Under the pieces are notes generated by a model. The model was not told where the DNA came from, ran no database searches, and saw nothing but the letters and a program-made list of their open reading frames with translations. 64,000 nucleotides of DNA from Carcharhinus longimanus (Eukaryota), in the NCBI GenBank assembly GCA_030264375.1, contig JASCQW010000112.1, positions 36,959,650 through 37,023,649 of the forward strand, in the 5' to 3' direction. Position numbers and translations under genes: made by a program. Below are positions 13,894 through 63,843 of this stretch, piece after piece; positions within the stretch are counted from its first letter, which is position 1, and every line of letters starts with the position of its first letter.

Positions 13894-14745
13894 ATATTGC
13901 CTTTTTGTTCTGGCTAGACTTGCTGTCAACAGTTTGGTAATAAGCTGCATTACACCAATGTTTAGCTTGGTAATGTCTTGTATTTGTATAGAATAATTAA
14001 ATGGTCAAAAGCTGCTGCTCATACTCATGTCCCCTTGTCACCCTGACAGACAAGGCATGGGGAAAAGAAACACTGCAGCAGAGGATCACTCAGATTTGAA
14101 AACCTAAATTCTGCATTAAATAAGGATTTATCCTCCAGCAAAAACACATTTTATTTAGGATAAAGTGTTGCTACTTGTAATTTTTTCTTACCATCTGAAT
14201 AATTCTTGTCTGATTAAACAGAGCTTGGTTTAAAACGAACACTTTAAAATACTGTGGTTACAAAGTTAGTTGTTTGAGTGCATGCACGTAGTTTGTCTAA
14301 TATCCAAAAGGAAGAAAAAGACAGGAATTCATTTTGGGTGGCAGTACATTGTCAGCCCACGTCATCCAACATTCGGTTCCATTAACTTTCATGTTACATA
14401 CACAAGAGTATAGCAAGCAGCTGAGGCAGTATGAACTTCCAGGATGGATGCTTGCTCCCAAAGTGTGTGTTTTGGAGAAGGTTTGTGTCCTACTCCAGGA
14501 TAATCATTACTTACTACTGACAAAAATCTCATGTTAAAAAATATTGCACTATGACCCCCCTCCTTCAACATTGGATATGCACAACAATATTGTCTTTTTG
14601 TTCTGGCTAGACTCACTGTCAGCAATTTACTAATAAGCTGCAATACAATGATGTTTAGCTTGCTAATGTTTTGTATTTGTATAGAATAATTAAATGGTCA
14701 GAAGCTGCTGCTAATACTTGTGTAACCTCATCACCATGAGACACA
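13894..14745 (+). repeat. Local direct duplication of about 155 bp (13894-14050 and 14587-14745)
   Basis: Both copies share atattg-ctttttgttctggctagact...tgtatttgtatagaataattaaatggtca.aagctgctgct. Confidence 0.9.
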
Positions 14746-16745: not shown

Positions 16746-17507
16746 GGCCTGGAATTTGCTTTTGCAGTCAACACCCTACTGAAACTGAAGCAACTTCTGA
16801 AGCTTGCACATACGTAGCATAAAGTGGGAAATATAGAGGGTTCTGTCAGTGATTCTACAATTCTCCAGTGAATGCACTGTTGAAGTCTCCCCATTCAATA
16901 TTTCCTTAGCAATCAGAGGGTTGGTGAAAATTTCCACTTTGATCCTGTTAGCTTCACTGTAAAAACCTGTTAAATAAAGGTTCAACAGGAGCAGCATCCT
17001 AATTTCATAATCACTGTTACACAACTTCACTAGCTAATTTTATATCTGTGGGATGTCAAATTTCTCCATTATGAATTAAAATAATCCTACATGTTTTTAA
17101 TATAACTGTTTTTAGAGTTTATTTTTTAATCTTAATCCAATCATAATTTATTTCACTATCTGAAAATTTAAATTAAAAGGGGCAATATTGATGCTTTAAA
17201 ATTTGGAGATTTCTGTTTCTGTGATTGGCTGCTTCCCCTGCTTTCTGGCATTACTGCTAATGTGTGCCTGGAGATCTCCTTGGTGCCATTAGATTAAAAC
17301 AGGCTATTAAGGGAAATTCCTACCAGAGACATCTTTGGGGTCACCTTTCTTCGAGATTANNNNNNNNNNNNNNNNNNNNNNNNNNNNNNNNNNNNNNNNN
17401 NNNNNNNNNNNNNNNNNNNNNNNNNNNNNNNNNNNNNNNNNNNNNNNNNNNNNNNNNNNATTAGCAGCAAATGCCATTGCTCTGTTGCTGACTGCAAAAT
17501 CTGGCCC
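16746..17507. mobile_element. PIF/Harbinger-type MITE (contains an N gap)
   Basis: Ends GGCCTGGAATTTGC and GCAAAATCTGGCCC, flanked by TTT on both sides. Confidence 0.55.
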
Positions 17508-18630
17508 TTTGTTTTTTTTAAGACAGCGATACGCATATTCTGCCTTTATTGCCTATTTCCATTGAAAGCCTTTAGAATACCAGGGAAAAGATGGAATCTT
17601 TCAGGCTTCACACATTAAACAAAGTACACTCCATCAACCCAATGTGAACGAGGTGCACTTACGAAGTTTCCAGTTCTGCTCAGTTAATTTTAGAGCATTT
17701 GTTTCTCTTACGCCAAATAAGTAGAAACCTTTTCAAAATCCCAGTTCTATGTTTTTGGAAAAGCTTTAATGTCAATAAATAATAAAGCTGTATATAGGTA
17801 ATGAGCCTTTGTCAAATCAGAGACAGGGTCTGTCGCATGATTATAGAACTGTGAAGTTGATGTATAAGATTTATTTTATGTATTTTTCACATGTCAATCT
17901 AATTTCGACTGCACCCTGCTATTTCCTGCTTTCTTTTGACAAAGCTGTGATATATGATTTTGCACATTCCCTGACTTACTACTCTAAACCAACTGCCCCA
18001 TCAGTGTGACCTTGCTCGAAACTCACACTAGAATATTCAACTTGGATCCCATTATCTTTCAAATGTGTTTATTGGCTAATTGTGTCACTTTGTCACTGCC
18101 ATTTAAGTTGTACAATACTGGTTCATTCAACATTAGCACGTGCTAGAATGTTCTTCTCCCCTTATTTCTCTTTATTTTCCTAATGCTTTTCCTCTCAGCC
18201 TTAACAGTGTTTACATGTTATTAAAATATTCCACAAAGACAAAAATGACACCAGATATAAACAGCTTGTCAGATAAACAATTAAGGTAAGAAGGCCGTTC
18301 ATCATCTGGTTGTCGACTTTTAACCAGTCAAATTTTTATCTTTATTTGCTGTACTAATTGAATGACCATAGCATTTGTTTACAAAAGCTCAAAAGAATTA
18401 CAATCTTAAAAAAATGCACACATTATATATATATTAAAAAATCAATCTGATTTGCAGCAAAATATAAGTGGCATTCTGCACCCCACAGTGCAGCGAGTAG
18501 AATGCACTTTTGTGTGAAAACTAATGAAATCTAGTATTGTACACAAAAAAATTAACTCAAAATCCCACATTAATAAACCATGATTATGCCTACTTAAAAC
18601 TATTTACAACAAGATGAGAAACAGACAGAC

Positions 18631-18737
18631 CTCATCCCTGTAAAGGGGGCTAGTGTAGTACATGATGTCCATAGCACTGCTGTTTAACATGTCTCTAAGT
18701 CCACGTACTTTATCTGGAGTTATAGATTCAACAGTAT
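18631..18737 (-). CDS. DDHD1: DDHD1 exon 6 (107 nt, phase 1-0)
   Basis: ttctag|AT...GATGAG|gtctgt; DTVESITPDKVRGLRDMLNSSAMDIMYYTSPLYRDE. Translated by hand. Confidence 0.95.
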
Positions 18738-19427
18738 CTAGAAACATAGAAAGTTGAAAAAGATCCATTTTCATTGATTCAGCAAGGCAACATTTGAAAA
18801 TAAATCTTCATGGACATTCTACTTGAACACTGATGCCACAGATCTAAGGCAACATGTTTAATCCTGTCCCCAGTGATGCCACTGTCTCCAGCACCTTGCT
18901 GAAGTGACCATTCTTCAGCAAATCCCATTGTTCTCATCTGGTACCAGCGCACAGCACACTTCCAGACAGGAGTGCAACTTGCACTATATGCTCCCTTCCC
19001 TTGACCAGAGGTTTCAGTGTCAGTTCTAAGTCCCTCAACATAGGTCAGCTTACTTAGCACGAACGTGAAACTGCCTTTTCCTGGTCTGTACAGCTCAGTA
19101 TTCAGCAGCATTTACCACTGTGCTAACAGAGGAGTTATACTACGCTTTTCCCAGGTAACAGTTGCCTTTGGTGGGCTGGAGCAAGTATAACGTCAGCAAC
19201 CAGATGAGAAAACAGTTCAAATTTTCTTTTAAAAAAAAATGAGTTTTAGTGGCAAAAAAAAAAGGACACGTTTGTTTGAAGAATAGAATGCCTCTTCATT
19301 TAGACTATTATTCAAGTAATACTGTTTCTCACTGTTTTAAGAATTCTAAAAGAGATTGCTGCTAATATCAAAATACAATGAAAAACAAGGTCCACAAACT
19401 CTGAAAGCCAATTACTTCTTAAGCATC

Positions 19428-19850
19428 AGCCTTGGCAGTGTAACGGCATTCTCAACTCAGTCTGAAACTGTGGGTTTAAACCCATTCCAGACATTGGAGC
19501 ATGCCATCCAGGTTGACACTCCAGTGCAATACTAAAGTGTGTTGCACTGTCACAGGAACCATAGTTTCAATGAGACATTAGCAGAGTCTGCCTTCCCTCC
19601 CAGCTGGATACAAAAGATCCAAGGCAATACTTTGAAGACCAGCAGGGAATCTTCCTTGACCAACATTTATCCCTCAATCCAATCAAAGACAGATGACCTG
19701 TTTATTTCAGATGGTGGGAGCTTGCTTTGTGCAAATTGGCTGTCAGAGTTTCTAATTTACATCAGTGTGCACACCTCAAAAATATTTCATTTGCTCCAAA
19801 TTGTTTTGGTACGTAAAAGGCACTATCATAAATGCAAGTCTGTCTTTCTT
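19428..19850 (+). mobile_element. DeuSINE (SacSINE1-like)
   Basis: gacactccagtgcaatact..gttgcactgtc..aaaagatcc..aacatttatccctcaa..aaggcactatcataaatgcaagtc. Confidence 0.8.
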
Positions 19851-20356
19851 TTACTTCCTTCCCTTGACTTAAATGTCAATGTGTATTCACTGGTTGAAAA
19901 ACAATTTAAGTATAAGAACTGGTTATAGTGTAGCTAAATTTAGCAGCTTATTCTTGTCAAGAGTCAAGACTGAAAGAGAACTTAATCATTGTCAATTGGT
20001 TTGACGTGCAGTTGCTCATGTTTACGAACAAGAGAAAATATATTTCTCTCGATCTTCTTGTAACCGTGGCTCTGTCTCCCTAATTCTTTGCTTCTCCATT
20101 TCCATCTTCTGTTCTTTCTCCCTCTTTTTCTCTTTAGATAGTTGAGATACTTTCTCCTGTTATTGCTACCTGTCTTCCAAACCTTCATTCTTTCTCTCCA
20201 TTCTTTTGTAAATCCTTTTTTCATCTATCTTGCTAGATTTCTACTCATGTCATACGATTTGCATTGGTATGTCTAACCAGATTGCATGCCCAGCATTCGA
20301 GCCGTTCTTAATTCATAAACTGTTCTTGAATATTTTCTGATTGCTTCCTTCTTTAC

Positions 20357-20662
20357 AGCAGCACAGTGGTTAGCACTGCTGCCTCATAGCACCAGGGACT
20401 CGGGTTCGATTCCAGCCTTGGGTGACTTGTCTGTGTGGATTTGCACATTCTCCCCACATCTGTGTGGGTTTCTTCCCATAATCCAAAGATGTGCAGGTTA
20501 GGTGGATTGGCCATGCTAAATTGCACCTGAGTGTCCCAAAGCTGTGTAGATTAGGGGGATTAGAAGGGTAAATGCATGGGGTTACAGGGATAGAGCGGGG
20601 CAGGATGCTCACTGCAGATCTGATTGGCCTCTTTCTGCACTGTAGGGAATCTATGGATTCTA
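20357..20662 (+). mobile_element. HE1-like V-SINE
   Basis: gcacagtggttagcactgctgcctca...ggttcgattcc...ctgcactgtagggaatctatggattcta. Confidence 0.92.
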
Positions 20663-20795
20663 AAAGTGATATCCTTAGAGATGGAGATGGATGTTAATTA
20701 TTCTTGCTCCATGTAAGATCCCTTAATCCAGTCGTGTTTAAATAAACCCATTAAAAATTGTCCTCTTGTTATGCTTGTCCCTCTCTCTGTTACAG

Positions 20796-20929
20796 GTCTT
20801 TGTCTCACCGTCGGCGCAGTTCTTTGGTTGTTTGTTTACCTGAGCTGGAGATATTTCCCGGGGATTTATTAATTTCTAATGGTGCAGAGCACCTTTACCG
20901 TACAGCGTCAACACCCATCCTCAATACAG
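20796..20929 (+). pseudogene. PLEKHG7-like exon A (134 nt), antisense within DDHD1 intron 5
   Basis: ctctctctgttacag|G...AATACAG|gtaagc; SLSHRRRSSLVVCLPELEIFPGDLLISNGAEHLYRTASTPILNT resembles the recalled RRRSSVVVSLPGLDVFPGDLLVSDGA motif N-terminal to the PLEKHG7 DH domain. Confidence 0.72.
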
Positions 20930-21121
20930 GTAAGCCCACTGACCTGTGTACAAGTCAGATAGGATCTTCCACAGCCTGTTTGCTTTGTCAATAACTCATA
21001 TTTCAGAAGCTTGGTGTTGTGGGTACTCAGTGGGTTTGCGCGTTGGGTAATTTGAAGAAGGAAGTGCGATCTGCCGGAGAGGATGGCAACATTCTAAAGC
21101 TGCCCCAACTTTCTCTTTCAG

Positions 21122-21162
21122 AATCCAAGAAGTCAAAGTGGCCGTTCACCAAACGAGGAATG
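21122..21162 (+). pseudogene. PLEKHG7-like exon B (41 nt)
   Basis: ctttctctttcag|AATCC...GGAATG|gtaatg; joins exon A in phase to give ESKKSKWPFTKRGM. Confidence 0.7.
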
Positions 21163-21635
21163 GTAATGCTGTGTAATGTTTTAGTAGACTGTTTAATGTT
21201 CTGGCACTCCCTCAGGTTTTGGAGGTGGAATCTGTGACAGACTGAACAAATAGTTATATACATTGGGCAACTTGTGTCAAACACTTCCCAAGATAGCAGT
21301 GAGTTTGTGCCTCAGTCACCTCCTTGTACGTGAGATTGGGGAGGTTCCGTTTACAGTGATTCTCACAAACCCAGATAAATTTAGCAGGTACAAACTTGTC
21401 TAACCTGAAGCTTAATCCTAAAGCGCTGTACCTCGGGTGATATTAGGTTTGAAGTTTCAAGCTTATTCATTTGTGTCACAAGTAGGCCTACATTAACACT
21501 GCAATGAAGTTAATGTGAAAATCCCCTAGTTGACANNNNNNNNNNNNNNNNNNNNNNNNNNNNNNNNNNNNNNNNNNNNNNNNNNNNNNNNNNNNNNNNN
21601 NNNNNNNNNNNNNNNNNNNNNNNNNNNNNNNNNNN

Positions 21636-22397
21636 CAAAGATGTGCAGGTTAGGTGGATTGGCCATGCTAAATTGCCCCTTAGTGTCCCAAGATGTGTAG
21701 GTTAGATGGATTAGCCATGGTGAATGTGTGGGGTTACCGGGATAGGGCAGGGCAAAAAGGCCTGGGTAGGACACTCTGGGCCTGATTTTACCACAGCCCT
21801 CTTATTACTTGGTAAAGTTGGGCGTGAGGCCATTAATGCGATCCGTGCCCACGCAGATGCCCACTTTGCCAAGGCCCGAAAATGGCCACAATCTGATTCG
21901 CACCCAAAACTGGTGCAATACCAATTTAAATGCTGCCACTCTGTGGGCAAATCGGTGGAGGGGAAAGGGGGCAGGGGGTCGCAATCGGTCTGGGTAGCCA
22001 GGGAGAGGAAAGTGGGTGGATAAGGGGGAAAGTAATGTTGTAGGGGTGATGTCTGTGGGGACCATCACTCCCGGGCCGCTTTATCCATTTTTTGTGGCCC
22101 AGGAGCGATGAAACAGGGGCGCGATTTTCAAATGTTTTTCCTCACTGCGCAGTTCAGAGCTCCGATTGTTTCTGGTGCACTAAGCCCCACCTACAGCGCA
22201 TTTCAGACTCACAATTTTTTTTTTCAGGCTAAGTGATTACGGGGAAGCCTGAGAGCAGATTTCTAAGTCGGATCTGAATTGCGCCCAGATTCAGCACTTA
22301 GAATGAAAATGGTAAAACTCGGCCCTCTGTCAGAGAGTTGATGCAGACTCAATGAACCGAATAGTCTCCTTATGCACTACAGGACTTCTATGATTCT
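21636..22397 (+). mobile_element. HE1-like SINE 3' half, split by a MITE
   Basis: SINE sequence resumes at 22326 after the insertion. Confidence 0.85.
21778..22325. mobile_element. 548-bp PIF/Harbinger-type MITE with 3-bp TSD (TCT)
   Basis: TIR GGGCCTGATTTTACCA vs reverse complement GGGCCGAGTTTTACCA (13/16); TCT at 21775-21777 and 22326-22328. Confidence 0.85.
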
Positions 22398-22759
22398 AAT
22401 TCTCATTCGTTTCTTGCAAATCAAGTATTCAAATTTGATTTCTTGGGAATTTTATTTTAATTTGGCTGCTGAGCTGCCAGCAGACGTTTACAAGCATCCA
22501 CCAGTCTGCTAACTTTCTTCACCAACATTAATCCTCTTTACCTTAAAAGGGACAGGTCAGGTTAGGCATAACTGCATCTTAGCAGCAGAATATATTACAC
22601 GTCACATGATCTAATACTCCTGGTTGTAAAATAGCACATCATCTTTCTCACTGAGATCAGTGCCACTGCAAATGAATTGATCGGGCAATTTGCAAAGATT
22701 TCGTTCAAGAACCGCATAGTGAAAGGGATGAGATGAGATTGGATTAAATTTGAGCCACA

Positions 22760-23072
22760 GGGTGGCACAGTGATTAGCACTGCTGCCTCACAGCGCCAGG
22801 AACTCGGGTTCGATTCCTGCCTTGGGTTACTGTGTGGAGTTTGCACATTCTCCCCACGTCTGCATGAGTTTCCTCTGGGTGCTCCGGCTTCCTCCCACAG
22901 TCAAACATGTGCAGGTTAGGTGGATTGGCCATACTAAATTTGCCTGAGTGTCAAGGGGACTAGCTAGGGTAAATGCATGGGTTATGGGGATAGGGCCTAG
23001 GTGGGATAGTAGTTGGTGCAAACTCAATGGTCTGAATGGCCTCTTCTGTACTGTAGGGATTCTATGATTCTA
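22760..23072 (+). mobile_element. HE1-like V-SINE, near full length
   Basis: tRNA-like head, V-domain and gggattctatgattcta tail. Confidence 0.92.
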
Positions 23073-23375
23073 GGATGAGTGGACCAGGATCAGTCTGTGA
23101 ATGTTAAAAGAAATAAAATAAGTGAAAACAAATATCAGAAAATTTAAAATAAGGGAAACTTCTTATTTATATAACACCTTAACAGATCGGAGAAAGACCC
23201 CAAAATACATTACATAAAGGATCTCAAATTCCACCAACACAAGAGTGCTGTGACTGCTTGCTTCTTATTTTGTGCATACCAACATCAGTAAGATGACTAA
23301 TTGATCCATTTCTGATAAGTGTTGTTTAAGAGAGGAATACCAGCTACCATAAACAGAGGAATTTCCTGTAGCCAG

Positions 23376-24330
23376 AGCAAAATACTGTGGATGTTCAAAA
23401 TCTAAAATAAATACAGAAAATGCTGCAAATACTTAGTAGATTTCGCAGCACTTGTGCAAAAAGATAACTAAAATTTCAGATTCCAATGAAAGGTTATTAG
23501 CCTGAAACTTTGGGCTGATTTCTGCTACTAAGGTGGGTAGCTTGAGTTGGGAATTGCTGGATTCGACAGAACCACCTCCATAAAGGAGACCCTGTCGAAC
23601 CCACCAGAAAGGCACGGAAAGGATAGACTCTGGCTTGCCCACCCTTGAAGTTGATCGGAGGTGGCCATGGAAGCAGGCAAGGGCCAAAGTGGGCTGGTTA
23701 GAAGGCCCGACTTGGTTCATTGGGACTTTGCTCGAAGATGTTGGCCCTTTAGCCTTCACGCCCCGTTCATGATCCCTTTATGTCCACTCACCCAGTACAC
23801 AATGTAGAGAACCATTAAGCCATATAATAGCAATGGCAAGTCTTGAAATGCTGAGGAAAATCTTTCAGAAATCTGCTTTAAAAACCCTGGCTGAGCTAAT
23901 TCAGTTGCCCTGGAACTCAGCCAAGTATTCATAATAAGGTCACCTGGTAACTGCATTAATGGAGACCAATGGCCAAACAACTACTTCAATAAATGGGTTC
24001 ATTATGAATTCAGGACTTGGCATTTTTTTTATTATTGCCTGGGCATGGAAGGGGCGTGGGTGAGGCCTGCTAAACTTACCTTTCAAAAGGTTCTCAAATC
24101 CAGATTATCCAGGATAGGAGATGCTTATACTCAATAGAACTACCAAGGTGGGAGTGCAGGGTGTGGGCTGCCCACACTCTTATTCTGCACCAAAGAAAAT
24201 TATTGGCAGCAGGAATGGAGGCAGGAATTCCAGATTCAAGTCCTGTCCACCACTTCTAAATCCCTCAGGGCTCTGAAAATCTGGGTGTTAACCGTTTCCC
24301 TCCGCAGATTCCGCCAGATCAATTGAGCAT
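23376..24330. mobile_element. Penelope-type terminal repeat interrupted by a GC-rich MITE (about 23512-24287)
   Basis: gcaaaatactgtggatg...cctgaaactt | insertion | ttaaccgtttccctccgcagattccgccaga. Confidence 0.6.
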
Positions 24331-24601
24331 TCCTATAAATCTTCCCTCGTTTTCTGCAGACTTCTTGGCTCAATTCTAATTAGCTTTGAAATTTGAAAGT
24401 TTAGAAAACTGGCAGGTGCTTGTAAAACTTCTTTAATTTTCTTGTAAACTCATGTTTAATCACATTAGTAGGTTTATGTTTCAATACTATCCACTTTAAT
24501 GAGGGATGAGAGAAAGTGCTAAGACCATACACAAATTCTAATTCAATTCCGATCTACAAGAAGCCCTTATCCAAATGGTACCCCTGTTTACATTTAATTA
24601 C

Positions 24602-24714
24602 CCCCATCCAGGCACAGCTTCGACCTCCACTCCACAGGCAGAAACTCAACATATTCCAAATTTGTGGCATAAGGAAAATGCTTTTCTTCAACCTTTCTTG
24701 CAGCTTCTCGCATC
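24602..24714 (-). CDS. DDHD1: DDHD1 exon 5 (113 nt, phase 2-1)
   Basis: ttggtag|GATG...GATGGGG|gtaatt; MREAARKVEEKHFPYATNLEYVEFLPVEWRSKLCLDG. Not in the ORF track; translated by hand. Confidence 0.95.
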
Positions 24715-25509
24715 CTACCAAAATAGAAGAGAAATAATCTTATGTGGACCTGTGATAAGTGTTAAGATGAAAGCAAACAGACCAGGCTGCTGTCAGTTTA
24801 AAATGTTATCTATTTTTAGCTGTTGGCAGGCTTAACAAACAAAAGTAAAACGAAGTACATGAGCTTTATTCTTTCATCACTAATTTGACAAGAGTGCAAA
24901 AATTCACAAAACGAACTGTGTAGATACTTGCATGCTGCAACTGAAATTATGGTTCAATTTGTTACTATTAAATGTCTGTAAAAATTGACTGAAGTTCCTC
25001 CAGGGTGACTATTTAAAAAAGCAATAATCTCTGGGCTAATGAAAATAAACGTAGGCATCTTTAGACTTTGTTGCAATGCACCTCAGAAAGAGGCCAAAAC
25101 ATGTTTCTATGAAAAGCCTTTCTTTCTCAAAGACAACAAATACAGAACGGTGGATTTTAAAGCCTTTGCCGGTTAGCCAGTGTATTAAATTAGATTATGT
25201 TTTCAGTAAATAAACTGCTGTCTAAAGTTTACATTGAGGAAAAAATCATATGATAGTTTTGTTTTTTGTATTCACCCAGTAAAGTGGAGAGATTCATATC
25301 TTACTGTATCATTCTGTTCACTCATCTGTCTCATGCAAATAAACTACCTGCTGGTCAAAGGCCAGCATTTTATCACTGGTTCTGCATTGGGGAGGTGATG
25401 GTGAGACTCTGCAATCCCTGGAGTGAAGGTGTTCCCACAGTGTTATTTGGATGGAACTCCTCTGATTTTTACCCAGTGTCTATGAAAGGTTGATGATATT
25501 CCTTTTTAT

Positions 25510-26010
25510 GATTCATTGGTGGGACATGGGTGTTGCTGGCTGGCCTGCATTTATTGTGCTAGTCACCCTTGGAGGACAATTGAGAGTCAACCACATTTCT
25601 GTGTCTCTGGAGTCATGTGTCGGCCAGACCAGGTAAGGATGGCAGATTTCCTTCCCTAAAGGACATTAGTGAACCAGATGGGTTTTTCCAACAATCAAAA
25701 CAACCAAGGGACATCACTCTCCCATTGCATTAATTTGCATTTGTCTGCACTTTCTCCCAGTGTCAAGAGTGTTATATGGACTCGATAACCTAAGGGAGCT
25801 AATTGTGAAGTGAAATATTTTATTTGTTTGTTTTTCCAACAATTGACAACCATTTCATGGTCATCAGTAGATTTGTAATTCCAGATTTTTTTTTATTGAA
25901 TTCAAATATCACCATCTGCTGTGGTGAGATTCAAACCCAGATTCTCAGAACATTAGCTGAGTTTCTGGATTAACAGTCAAGCGATAATATCACTAGGCCA
26001 TCGCCTCATG
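25510..26010 (-). mobile_element. LINE-tail/SINE-derived repeat
   Basis: catgggtgttgctggctggcctgcattt...ggatggcagatttccttccctaaaggacattagtgaaccagatggg; same family as 42345-42700 in the opposite orientation. Confidence 0.7.
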
Positions 26011-29000
26011 TCTGAGAGTTGGAGACTATGCTATTACGAACTAGCAAACATTTATTGACTGTTTCCATTATCAGAGACAGACTTTAGCAGGGCATCGTTA
26101 GCCAATTCTTCCCTCAGCTTCCAGCTACATAGAGTCATAGAGTTTTACAGCACAGAAAGAGGCCCTTCAGCCCATCAGGTCCCCGCGCCAGCCACCAAGC
26201 ACCTACTATTCTCATCCCATTTTCTGGCACTTGGTTCATAGCCTTGTGATGTGATCTGACATCAACTGGCATCACTAATGATGCACCCTTAACAATTCGC
26301 GTGATGGTTATTAATGCTACACTCGGATACAATTACAACATTGGAAAGACATTTGGGCAGGTTGGGATGGGAAAGATTTGGAGGGATATGGGCCAACGCA
26401 GGAAAATGGGACTAGTTCAGTTTAGGAAGTTTGGTTAGCATGGAGGAGTTGGGCCAAAGGGCCTGTTTCTGTGCTGTATATCTCTATGTCTCTATGACAA
26501 TTCTCTCCTGCTATAAGGGTCCGAAGCTGTTCAAAGATGTGTGGGTTAGGTTGATTGGCCATGCTAAAATTGCCCCTTAGTGTCCTGAGATGCGTAGGTT
26601 GGAGGGATTAGCAGATAAATGTGTAGGGATATGGAGGGAGGGCCTGGCTGGGATTGTGGTCGTGCNNNNNNNNNNNNNNNNNNNNNNNNNNNNNNNNNNN
26701 NNNNNNNNNNNNNNNNNNNNNNNNNNNNNNNNNNNNNNNNNNNNNNNNNNNNNNNNNNNNNNNNNATCTGAATGTGTCCTGCAGCTAGTATAGAATGTAT
26801 ACAGCTCTGTATTCTCTTTTACAATCTCTGTTTCATGCTATTGTCCATTTAGGTATTGGGCAAGAAATATTGTACCACCCCCCCCCCATCCCAGTTAAAA
26901 CCAAAATGACATTTCAATTGTGTGAAGTACTACTTGTCACTGACAGTCACTTTATAATGAAAACAGTGTACAACATGCAAAGTAACCACAACACTCCAAG
27001 AAAACAGCTGACAGAACGGATGCCATCGATTTCTCAGGAATTCTATCCAGTACTGAAAGGGGGACACATTTCAGTAATGCAGAGTCACATAGCCATATCA
27101 GAGATAACTCAGGTCCATTGACCAAAGCAACCGTGTTATAATGGAGAAAAGCTAACACCCATCTCTTGCTAAGTCTCACCTGTTTCTCCTCAAACGTTGT
27201 GTGTGCAATCAAAAGTCAACTTTCATTTTTTTGTTGAGAAACATTGCATATAGATTAAGATTTAAAAAGTTACTAATTTTCTAATGTTAGATTTCTTACA
27301 AAGGCATTAAGAACACAGATCAGCATTAAACAATCACTTACAAGAATTTGTTTTACTAAATGGGATGACTATTCAAAATAGTCTCAAAAGCAGCCTAAGC
27401 ATTTAATGTTACTGGATAACGCTATGGTTTTACAGTTTTGTCTAAAACTGGCAAAATACATGACATAGTTCAAGTGCAAAGGTAGCACTACAACGTGTGA
27501 TAGTTGGGGAAGGAATAAATGTGTACAAGATTACATAGACCACCTGACCCAACCAGTCCATGTTGGTGTTTATGCTCCATTTCAGTCCCCTACTATCTTT
27601 TTTCATCTAAATCTATCATTGTAACTGAGTAGACTAAGGTCTAGTTTCTCCTTAAATGTATCTATTTGATTTACTTCAAGTACTCTCTATGGTAGTGAGT
27701 TCCACATTCTTACCAGCCACTGAGTGAAGTGGTTTCATGGAACCTTCAGAGCTAGTCACCCAAAACCCACATGGGCAGATGTCAGGAGACACGCAGAGAT
27801 GAAAGAAATAAATTTCTAGCAATCTAATCCAGCTCCCTCTTACACACTTAAGTGAAAAAAAATCCTATTCACAAAACACATTCAAAGCTTTAACTCTCCT
27901 CAGTGCTTAAACTAATAAAACATTTTACTCAGCTCACACATCAAAGACACCAAACTGTGAACTGAGCCCCTTCTCAGACAATTGCAGTTTTTGAAACTCG
28001 GCCATGCATTCATAATAATAGCCCATGAGAAATGTTAACGTTTACTGAAACTGAAAGAACAAATTATATTTTTTTTCATACCTACACCAGATGACCTGTC
28101 AATCCAAGAAGTCTAGAAGATTGTTTTTAAAAGCTCCTGGACAGTTTCATCTTGTTTTCTAGTTTAAACAACAGGGAATTTCAAAAAAACTTCAATTCGT
28201 GATATTTAAATAAGATCTTACCCATCCTTCAAGAGCATTTATGTCGACTCCAGCACCTACACAACAGATTAAGGTCTCTGGACCAGCCATAGTGGGGTCT
28301 GTTTGAACTCAACCACAGAGTTCAAGTGGCAGCAATGATTCTGAGTTTCCTTTCATGTAAATTATGCCTCCCCATGCTGAAAAAAATGGGATTTGATGAA
28401 AATGGGGGCATATCTCACTGGAGTCAGCCCGGCATTGCAAAAATCCTGCCCCTAGTGCTTGGTTTGCTTTTTAATGACTTTGCTAAGCTACGGCACAACT
28501 TTTGGTAGTCAGCATATTTCTACTGGGAAATCCAGTTATTTTTCCATTTCATCTAGACCTGCACCTTTCTCAATAAATGTATTACCTCACACTTGTGTCA
28601 CAATTTACCCATTCTGCAAGTTTATTAAATCCTCCTATAAGTTGTAGAAAATAAAATTATTCTAGTTTCACAAGAATTAAATTGAGAAAGCTAAATTGTG
28701 AAGCTGATCTTTGTTCCAGATAGGCTCTGCAAACTACGCATTCCATTCACATATAAACACTGCTTTAAGGACTGCTGAAGGAACAAACAAAAGACTTGAA
28801 TATGAAGAGATCAGAGATTGCCTGAGTATAAAGTGCCAGGAAAATTGGGAGGTCAGAAACATGGCATCTCAGTTTACTGCTGCAAGTTACATTATTGAGA
28901 ACAGAAGAATTGTTTTTACACACTGCAGCACACAATGCAGGTAAAATGGCAATTATGTCTACTAATTTCAATATTCTTTCTGCCTGTCTATTTTGGGCAT

Positions 29001-63579: not shown

Positions 63580-63843
63580 GCAATGGTTAGCTGCTGCTTC
63601 AGAACACCAGGGACCAGGGTTCGATTCCCGGCTTGGATCACTGTCTCTGCGGAGTCTGCATGTTCTCCCCGTGTCTGTGTGGGTTTTCTCTGGTTTCTTT
63701 CCACAGTCTGAAAGACATGCTGATCAGGTGCTTTGGCTGTGCTAAATTCTACCTCAGTGTACCCGAACAGGCACCAGAGTGTGGTGACTAGGGGATTTTC
63801 ACAGTAACTTCACTGCAGTAACTTGTGACACTAATAAATAAAG
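63580..63843 (+). mobile_element. V-SINE with an alternative tail (second family; a reverse-oriented tail lies at about 21455-21535)
   Basis: ggttcgattcccggcttgg, V-domain, and ggggattttcacagtaacttc...gtgacactaataaataaa tail. Confidence 0.82.

Follow-up and report, generated by a model that had tools for sequence, protein, structure and literature searches.

Parts of one report describe PLEKHG7 as a Dbl-like RhoGEF whose function is little known and which has been lost from several rodents (PMC5499878). The PLEKHG7 literature matches listed included no shark study, and the sole match covering both DDHD1 and PLEKHG7 was an unrelated cancer expression study. In cartilaginous fishes PLEKHG7 is a Dbl-family RhoGEF with a DH domain (PF00621), and its gene has the same consecutive exon pair, with a conserved E residue in a split codon, that we find in the 64,000-nt stretch of Carcharhinus longimanus DNA analyzed here (the window). 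The fragment in the window, however, comprises only ~59 codons and its genomic neighbourhood is wrong: it lies inside DDHD1. Two kinds of described cases resemble this situation. Passages of PMC3420103 describe, for cattle KIT and tilapia vasa (circular DNA intermediates) and for Alu-associated segmental duplication, how an intron-containing piece, with SINE homology at its boundaries, likewise came to lie far from its origin. The cattle segments are real copy-number gains of 492-575 kb, whereas the shark piece is 1 kb long and gives no sign of an extra copy. In the ALDH2 assembly case, foreign exons likewise turned up within a gene to which they do not belong, beside an assembly gap and without extra depth. 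That case was a false duplication from an adjacent gene, whereas the shark donor is on another chromosome and one of the junctions lies inside a contig. The results presented below lead us to conclude, with a probability of about 0.85, that the placement of the fragment is due to a chimeric contig in which a wrong branch was taken within a SINE. The features of the locus are collected in Table 1.

Table 1. Coordinates in the window of the PLEKHG7 fragment, the SINEs, the gap and the flanking DDHD1 exons.
Feature	Position	Strand	Remarks
DDHD1 exon downstream of the fragment	18738-18628	-	on the fragment's own gap-free contig, 17460-21535
SINE 5' half and core joined to the DDHD1 intron	20359-20524	+	high-copy
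41-bp SINE core, proposed wrong-join point	20484-20524	+	identical to 21636-21676
Probable foreign PLEKHG7-locus segment	20525-21535	+	SINE 3' half, unique intron/exon DNA and second SINE tail; left edge inferred
PLEKHG7 exon A	20796-20929	+	134 nt; residues ~241-285 of shark PLEKHG7, upstream of the DH domain
Native PLEKHG7 intron, phase 1, GT..AG	20930-21121	+	192 nt
PLEKHG7 exon B	21122-21162	+	41 nt; residues ~285-299
Sister SINE 3' tail, contig end	21460-21535	-	opposite orientation; left edge approximate
Scaffold gap, exactly 100 N	21536-21635		four of the window's nine gaps have this exact length
SINE 3' half without 5' half	21636-22398	+	split by the element at 21778-22325; complements 20359-20483
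MITE-like insert	21778-22325		548 bp; 16-bp terminal inverted repeats (13/16), TCT on both sides
DDHD1 exon upstream of the fragment	24719-24603	-	on the next contig

An earlier reading of the sequence alone had proposed two PLEKHG7-like exons here. Their coordinates and lengths, the 192-nt intron, the splice sites, the matching phase and the lack of stops were all reproduced: both exons have AG acceptors preceded by pyrimidine tracts and GT donors, their phases match and the frame is open. A database search gave protein matches rather than no hit. All 16 protein matches to exon A, among 39 candidates, are named PLEKHG7 (best E value 2e-16), and identity to the shark and ray proteins is 74-93%. 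Exons A and B map to consecutive stretches in all 12 orthologues compared, in agreement with the proposed resemblance to the region N-terminal to the DH domain, and in each of the 12 the gap between the two stretches is exactly one residue, the E encoded by the split codon. All 31 columns that are invariant among the 12 orthologues are kept. The exons show 3-5 differences from three other carcharhiniforms, which differ among themselves by 2-5, and they look to be under constraint, as judged from these comparisons. One residue of exon A, I41, is absent from all 12 orthologues. A profile search of representatives gave seven matches: four are PLEKHG7-like (two full length, and two short ones that read through exon A, with divergence setting in at an identical donor position), and three are apparently spurious matches to repeat proteins. 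Taking their sequence as the guide, we consider exons A and B to be genuine, ordinary and consecutive PLEKHG7 exons with their native intron. A retrocopy is ruled out by the presence of the intron, and an ancient paralogue by the 74-93% identity to PLEKHG7 itself.

Only ~59 of the ~750 PLEKHG7 codons are present, without the start, the DH domain or the PH domain. A tblastn search of the window, outside its N gaps, with 16 PLEKHG7 proteins detected exons A and B only, the remaining matches being scattered with E values of 0.039 or worse. This agrees with the earlier impression, gained by eye, that the window holds no DH or PH exons elsewhere. The CpG content of the fragment had also been remarked upon as retained. 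The exons have observed/expected ratios of 0.84 and 0.91 and their intron has one of 0.38, as compared to 0.255 for the whole window and 0.44 for the DDHD1 exons. Because four of the six CpGs in exon A are the first two bases of Arg codons, this comparison indicates that the CpG signal is one of ordinary coding constraint. CpG retention as a mark of recent capture is thus ruled out.

The host gene, DDHD1, is on the minus strand, and nine of its exons were mapped. The PLEKHG7 exons are antisense within a single DDHD1 intron, as had been claimed; the DDHD1 exons mapped on both sides of it are given in Table 1, and we take the intron to be intron 5 according to the human exon numbering. The best match of the DDHD1 protein is that of Mustelus asterias (98%), which by itself would suggest a carcharhiniform shark. 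An extra DDHD1 exon at 45472-45365 (minus strand) is represented in the Scyliorhinus canicula and Heterodontus proteins, two of the three shark proteins tested, and not in the Mustelus isoform; it is probably alternatively spliced.

In all eight usable elasmobranch species (Mustelus, S. canicula, Carcharodon, Cetorhinus, Heterodontus, Hemitrygon, Amblyraja and Rhinoraja), the longest contig with PLEKHG7 is not the one with DDHD1; the longest contig served here as a proxy for the chromosome, and clusters at 90% identity may pool species. Scyliorhinus torazame was left out of this count because its DDHD1 entry derives from a 485-kb scaffold, seemingly of another assembly, and four further species with PLEKHG7 had no DDHD1 entry among the best 120 of 1,183 DDHD1 matches. 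The two genes, which the sequence-only reading had described as not linked in human, are by this proxy unlinked in these eight species too, so that the fragment sits where it does not belong, whether in the genome itself or through an error.

This bears on the proposal that the exons belong to a nested antisense gene. PLEKHG7 would then have moved in this lineage, and the two exons would be part of a true nested or overlapping gene whose remaining exons lie beyond the window or are hidden in gaps. Such a gene would account for the single version, the normal depth and the constraint, and the nine gaps of the window do conceal sequence. On the other hand, the tblastn search, which covered ~20 kb upstream and 42 kb downstream of the fragment, found no further PLEKHG7 exon, the loci are unlinked in 8/8 species including the triakid that gives the closest DDHD1 match, and the 41-bp overlap at the gap edge described below would be left unexplained. 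We consider a nested gene extremely improbable.

The edges of the gap next to the fragment are unusual. A run of exactly 100 N is the conventional mark for a gap of unknown size. The first 41 bases following it (21636-21676) are identical to 20484-20524, and no longer exact repeat occurs in the window. Since the 41-mer corresponds to the SINE consensus, finding it twice without a mismatch is less remarkable than it would be for unique DNA; 12 other matches to it carry 3-12 mismatches. The edges of the other eight gaps have no 12-base match anywhere else in the window. The second longest exact repeat is a direct repeat of 30 bp, whose copies at 13978-14007 and 14671-14700 are 693 bases apart; it could represent a small duplication or another assembly seam.

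We take the SINE at 20359-20524 to be HE1-like. HE1 is described, in the parts of PMC4824008 that concern it, as a V-SINE of sharks and rays. The SINE that follows the gap lacks its 5' half, which is exactly what 20359-20483 supplies, and its 3' end resumes at 22326-22398, beyond the MITE-like insert. Removal of 20525-21676 (1,152 bases) leaves a single complete SINE, within a DDHD1 intron that then measures ~4.7 kb. As expected for the true continuation of the DDHD1 intron, the contig after the gap begins at the 41 bases shared with 20484-20524. The SINE tail before the gap belongs to a sister element that runs in the other direction: positions 21498-21530 match a SINE copy near 63787-63819 at 94%, with a loose-end consensus at 21530. 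The two edges of the gap therefore do not belong together. The left boundary of the foreign piece probably falls within the left SINE, somewhere from 20484 to about 20629, and hence further to the left than position 20663, at which the sequence-only reading had placed its start. An Rfam scan of 17460-26665 gave no matches, and a tandem-repeat scan of the same region gave three trivial rows only. Elsewhere in this region, at 26128-26496, two 47-bp inverted arms (87%) lie 275 nt apart, each ending in an 8-bp tandem tail typical of the local retroposon ends; these are probably two tail-to-tail elements.

Contigs assembled from sequencing runs were compared with the window over positions 18800-21535, to the left of the gap. 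Four of 22 runs were used: three genomic ones (X1, X2 and X6) and X17, which we guess to be an RNA run. Contigs were matched at a threshold of 88% likeness after a record filter had been applied, and contig depth serves as a rough guide and not as a copy number. The window itself may derive from the X1 sample, which would in that case not be independent. In all three genomic runs the fragment forms a separate, free-standing contig (20631-21488 in X1, 20629-21491 in X2 and 20629-21500 in X6) that runs from SINE to SINE, as the description of a fragment between two SINEs had implied. The contigs on the DDHD1 side end at 20382 (X1), at 20383 (X2) and, among the X6 contigs listed, at 20103. The SINE between the two sets of contigs has a depth in the millions (bin 20456-20547). 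Thus, as expected for a chimeric junction in a high-copy repeat, both the X1 and X2 contigs on the DDHD1 side and the fragment contigs break inside the shared SINE.

Among the contigs listed for X1, X2, X6 and X17 none crosses 20383-20629 in either configuration. Hence neither a false join nor an empty site was observed, and that a wrong branch was taken is what we infer. Overlapping X1 and X2 contigs tie the DDHD1 intron together as far as 20382-20383. The fragment and the downstream DDHD1 exon are on one contig, and the switch from DDHD1 to PLEKHG7 consequently lies inside this contig. A pure scaffolding error, in which a whole contig is misplaced, is ruled out by the presence of that exon on the same gap-free contig. 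Three long X1 contigs, on both sides of the SINE, show no differences from the window. The organism of X6 differs from the window by 10 substitutions in the fragment (1.4% if all are non-coding) and by 17 in 1,332 bases of the DDHD1 intron (1.3%), which is as expected of two single-copy loci.

The region to the left of the SINE has peculiarities of its own. On the plus strand, positions 19850-20358 are strongly enriched in T and C (AT skew -0.28), which sets them apart from the remaining intron, and X2 contains a second, diverged contig of 268 nt over 19895-20102, which indicates that part of this region is a low-copy repeat. An old repeat, which we presume to be DeuSINE-like, occupies 19420-19850; depth is raised at 19628-19903, and X1 and X6 contigs break within this repeat while an X2 contig crosses it.

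A captured duplicate, as proposed in the sequence-only reading, predicts a parental version of the fragment in addition to the one in the window, as well as extra depth. At positions 21042, 21330, 21348 and 21372 of the fragment the total depth equals that of the single contig in X1 (7.8), X2 (6.38) and X6 (2), the last being the floor value and hence uninformative on copy number. A bin wholly inside exon A has a depth of exactly 6.38 in X2, so that no second contig of at least 88% likeness is present there. No second version was thus found at the five places checked, four of them in X1, X2 and X6 and the exon A bin in X2, although an identical copy would collapse into the same contig. The raised depth that duplication predicts (1.5-2 times) was not seen either: in X1 the depth of the fragment is 7.8 versus 9.39 and 11 for the DDHD1 intron, or 0.7-0.8 of its flanks, and in X2 it is 6.38 versus 14.1-16.7. 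Together these results disfavour an intron-containing duplicate, since neither a parental version nor extra depth is found in any of the three genomic runs, and the fragment looks like the only copy of PLEKHG7. Some bins do show extra depth, namely the exon bins in X1 (9.07-11.5 versus 7.8) and 21100-21375 in X2 (10.2-14.5 versus 6.38). This is likely to reflect alleles, a second copy being possible. The depth of the X2 fragment contig, under half of that of the DDHD1 intron contigs, might be due to split haplotypes or hemizygosity, which is a guess.

Among possible duplicates, one so young as to be still identical to its parent would alone fit the single version. In that case a SINE-bounded PLEKHG7 piece of ~1 kb would have recombined into the DDHD1 SINE very recently, as an insertion private to the species or individual, for instance from a DNA circle by a crossover in the shared core; a hybrid SINE would have been left on the left side, a second hybrid would be hidden in the gap, and copy and parent would still be identical and hence collapsed into one contig. 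Such an insertion would produce this very structure, with the 41-bp core identical on either side, and it would fit the gap-free contig shared by the fragment and the DDHD1 exon as well as the identity of X1 to the window in the three long contigs flanking the SINE. Moreover, passages of PMC3420103 describe, for vertebrates, both duplication by way of circular intermediates and dispersed duplication associated with Alu elements. Against it, the depth of the fragment in X1 is 0.7-0.8 of its flanks and not 1.5-2 times, and it further requires that the junction falls in the highest-copy k-mers, that the gap hides the second junction and that this gap ends exactly at the shared core. We regard a recent insertion as unlikely.

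Further evidence comes from X17, which by our guess is an RNA run from a relative with the same organism code as X6. Positions 808-940 of a 2,455-nt X17 contig correspond to 20794-20926 of the window without a single difference in 133 nt, including the I41 codon. The position of exon A in this contig fits a full-length PLEKHG7 mRNA, with implied UTRs of ~90 and 106 nt by comparison with the Mustelus coding sequence, and such a transcript is what we presume the contig to be. By depth, 44 bases over exon B are attributable to this contig, and none in the intron bin 21008-21099; this points to splicing of exons A and B at the 20929/21122 boundary, where three bases are ambiguous owing to a CAG on both sides. 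The absence of exon differences is weak evidence by itself (P about 0.10 for 177 nt, and about 0.18 for the 133 nt listed). The match over exon A indicates that the version in the window is the one that the relative appears to express in its full gene.

These data also bear on an older captured duplicate, which would be common to related sharks and would have diverged from the parent copy. The presence of the fragment in DNA runs of several organisms and the I41 residue, found in 0/12 orthologues, would be in line with such a history. Yet no diverged second version was detected at 88% likeness in 3/3 genomic runs, the presumed full-length transcript contig of the relative is identical over exon A, the I41 codon included, and the invariant residues and splice sites are all intact. 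An older duplicate is thus very doubtful.

The sequence-only reading had named a misassembly beside the N gap as one of three explanations, and it is the one that fits best, in view of the 41-bp overlap, the single version and the depth that is not raised. If the contig is chimeric, as we favour, events may be pictured as follows. The DDHD1 intron would carry one SINE, at 20359-20524 and resuming at 21677, and PLEKHG7, on another chromosome, would have its own copy of that SINE a short way upstream of exon A. Where the two copies share their near-invariant core, the assembler would have quit the DDHD1 path and taken the PLEKHG7 path for ~1 kb, until the next SINE halted it at 21535. The true continuation of DDHD1 would have become a separate contig beginning at the shared 41 bases, and the scaffolder would have placed it behind a 100-N placeholder, the real distance being negative (about -1,050 bases). 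The identity of the exons, the contig ends, the 41-bp overlap, the single version in each run and the depth that is not raised are observed; the wrong-branch step itself would be the link between them. The piece has probably been moved and not duplicated, and the PLEKHG7 model of the same assembly may lack exons A and B.

As an artefact, the fragment would mean that unrelated loci are joined at SINE cores in this assembly, even in the interior of contigs, and that findings of foreign exons or of synteny from the same assembly need equal scrutiny. A contig that begins after a gap with a k-mer already used upstream provides a cheap screen for such joins. Were the fragment a true insertion after all, it would show SINE-mediated exon shuffling through DNA recombination at an early stage, in a genome that evolves slowly. 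It could give rise to antisense spliced transcripts, and, as an instance in a cartilaginous fish of exons carried from one chromosome to another by way of SINEs, it would be small and open to dating.
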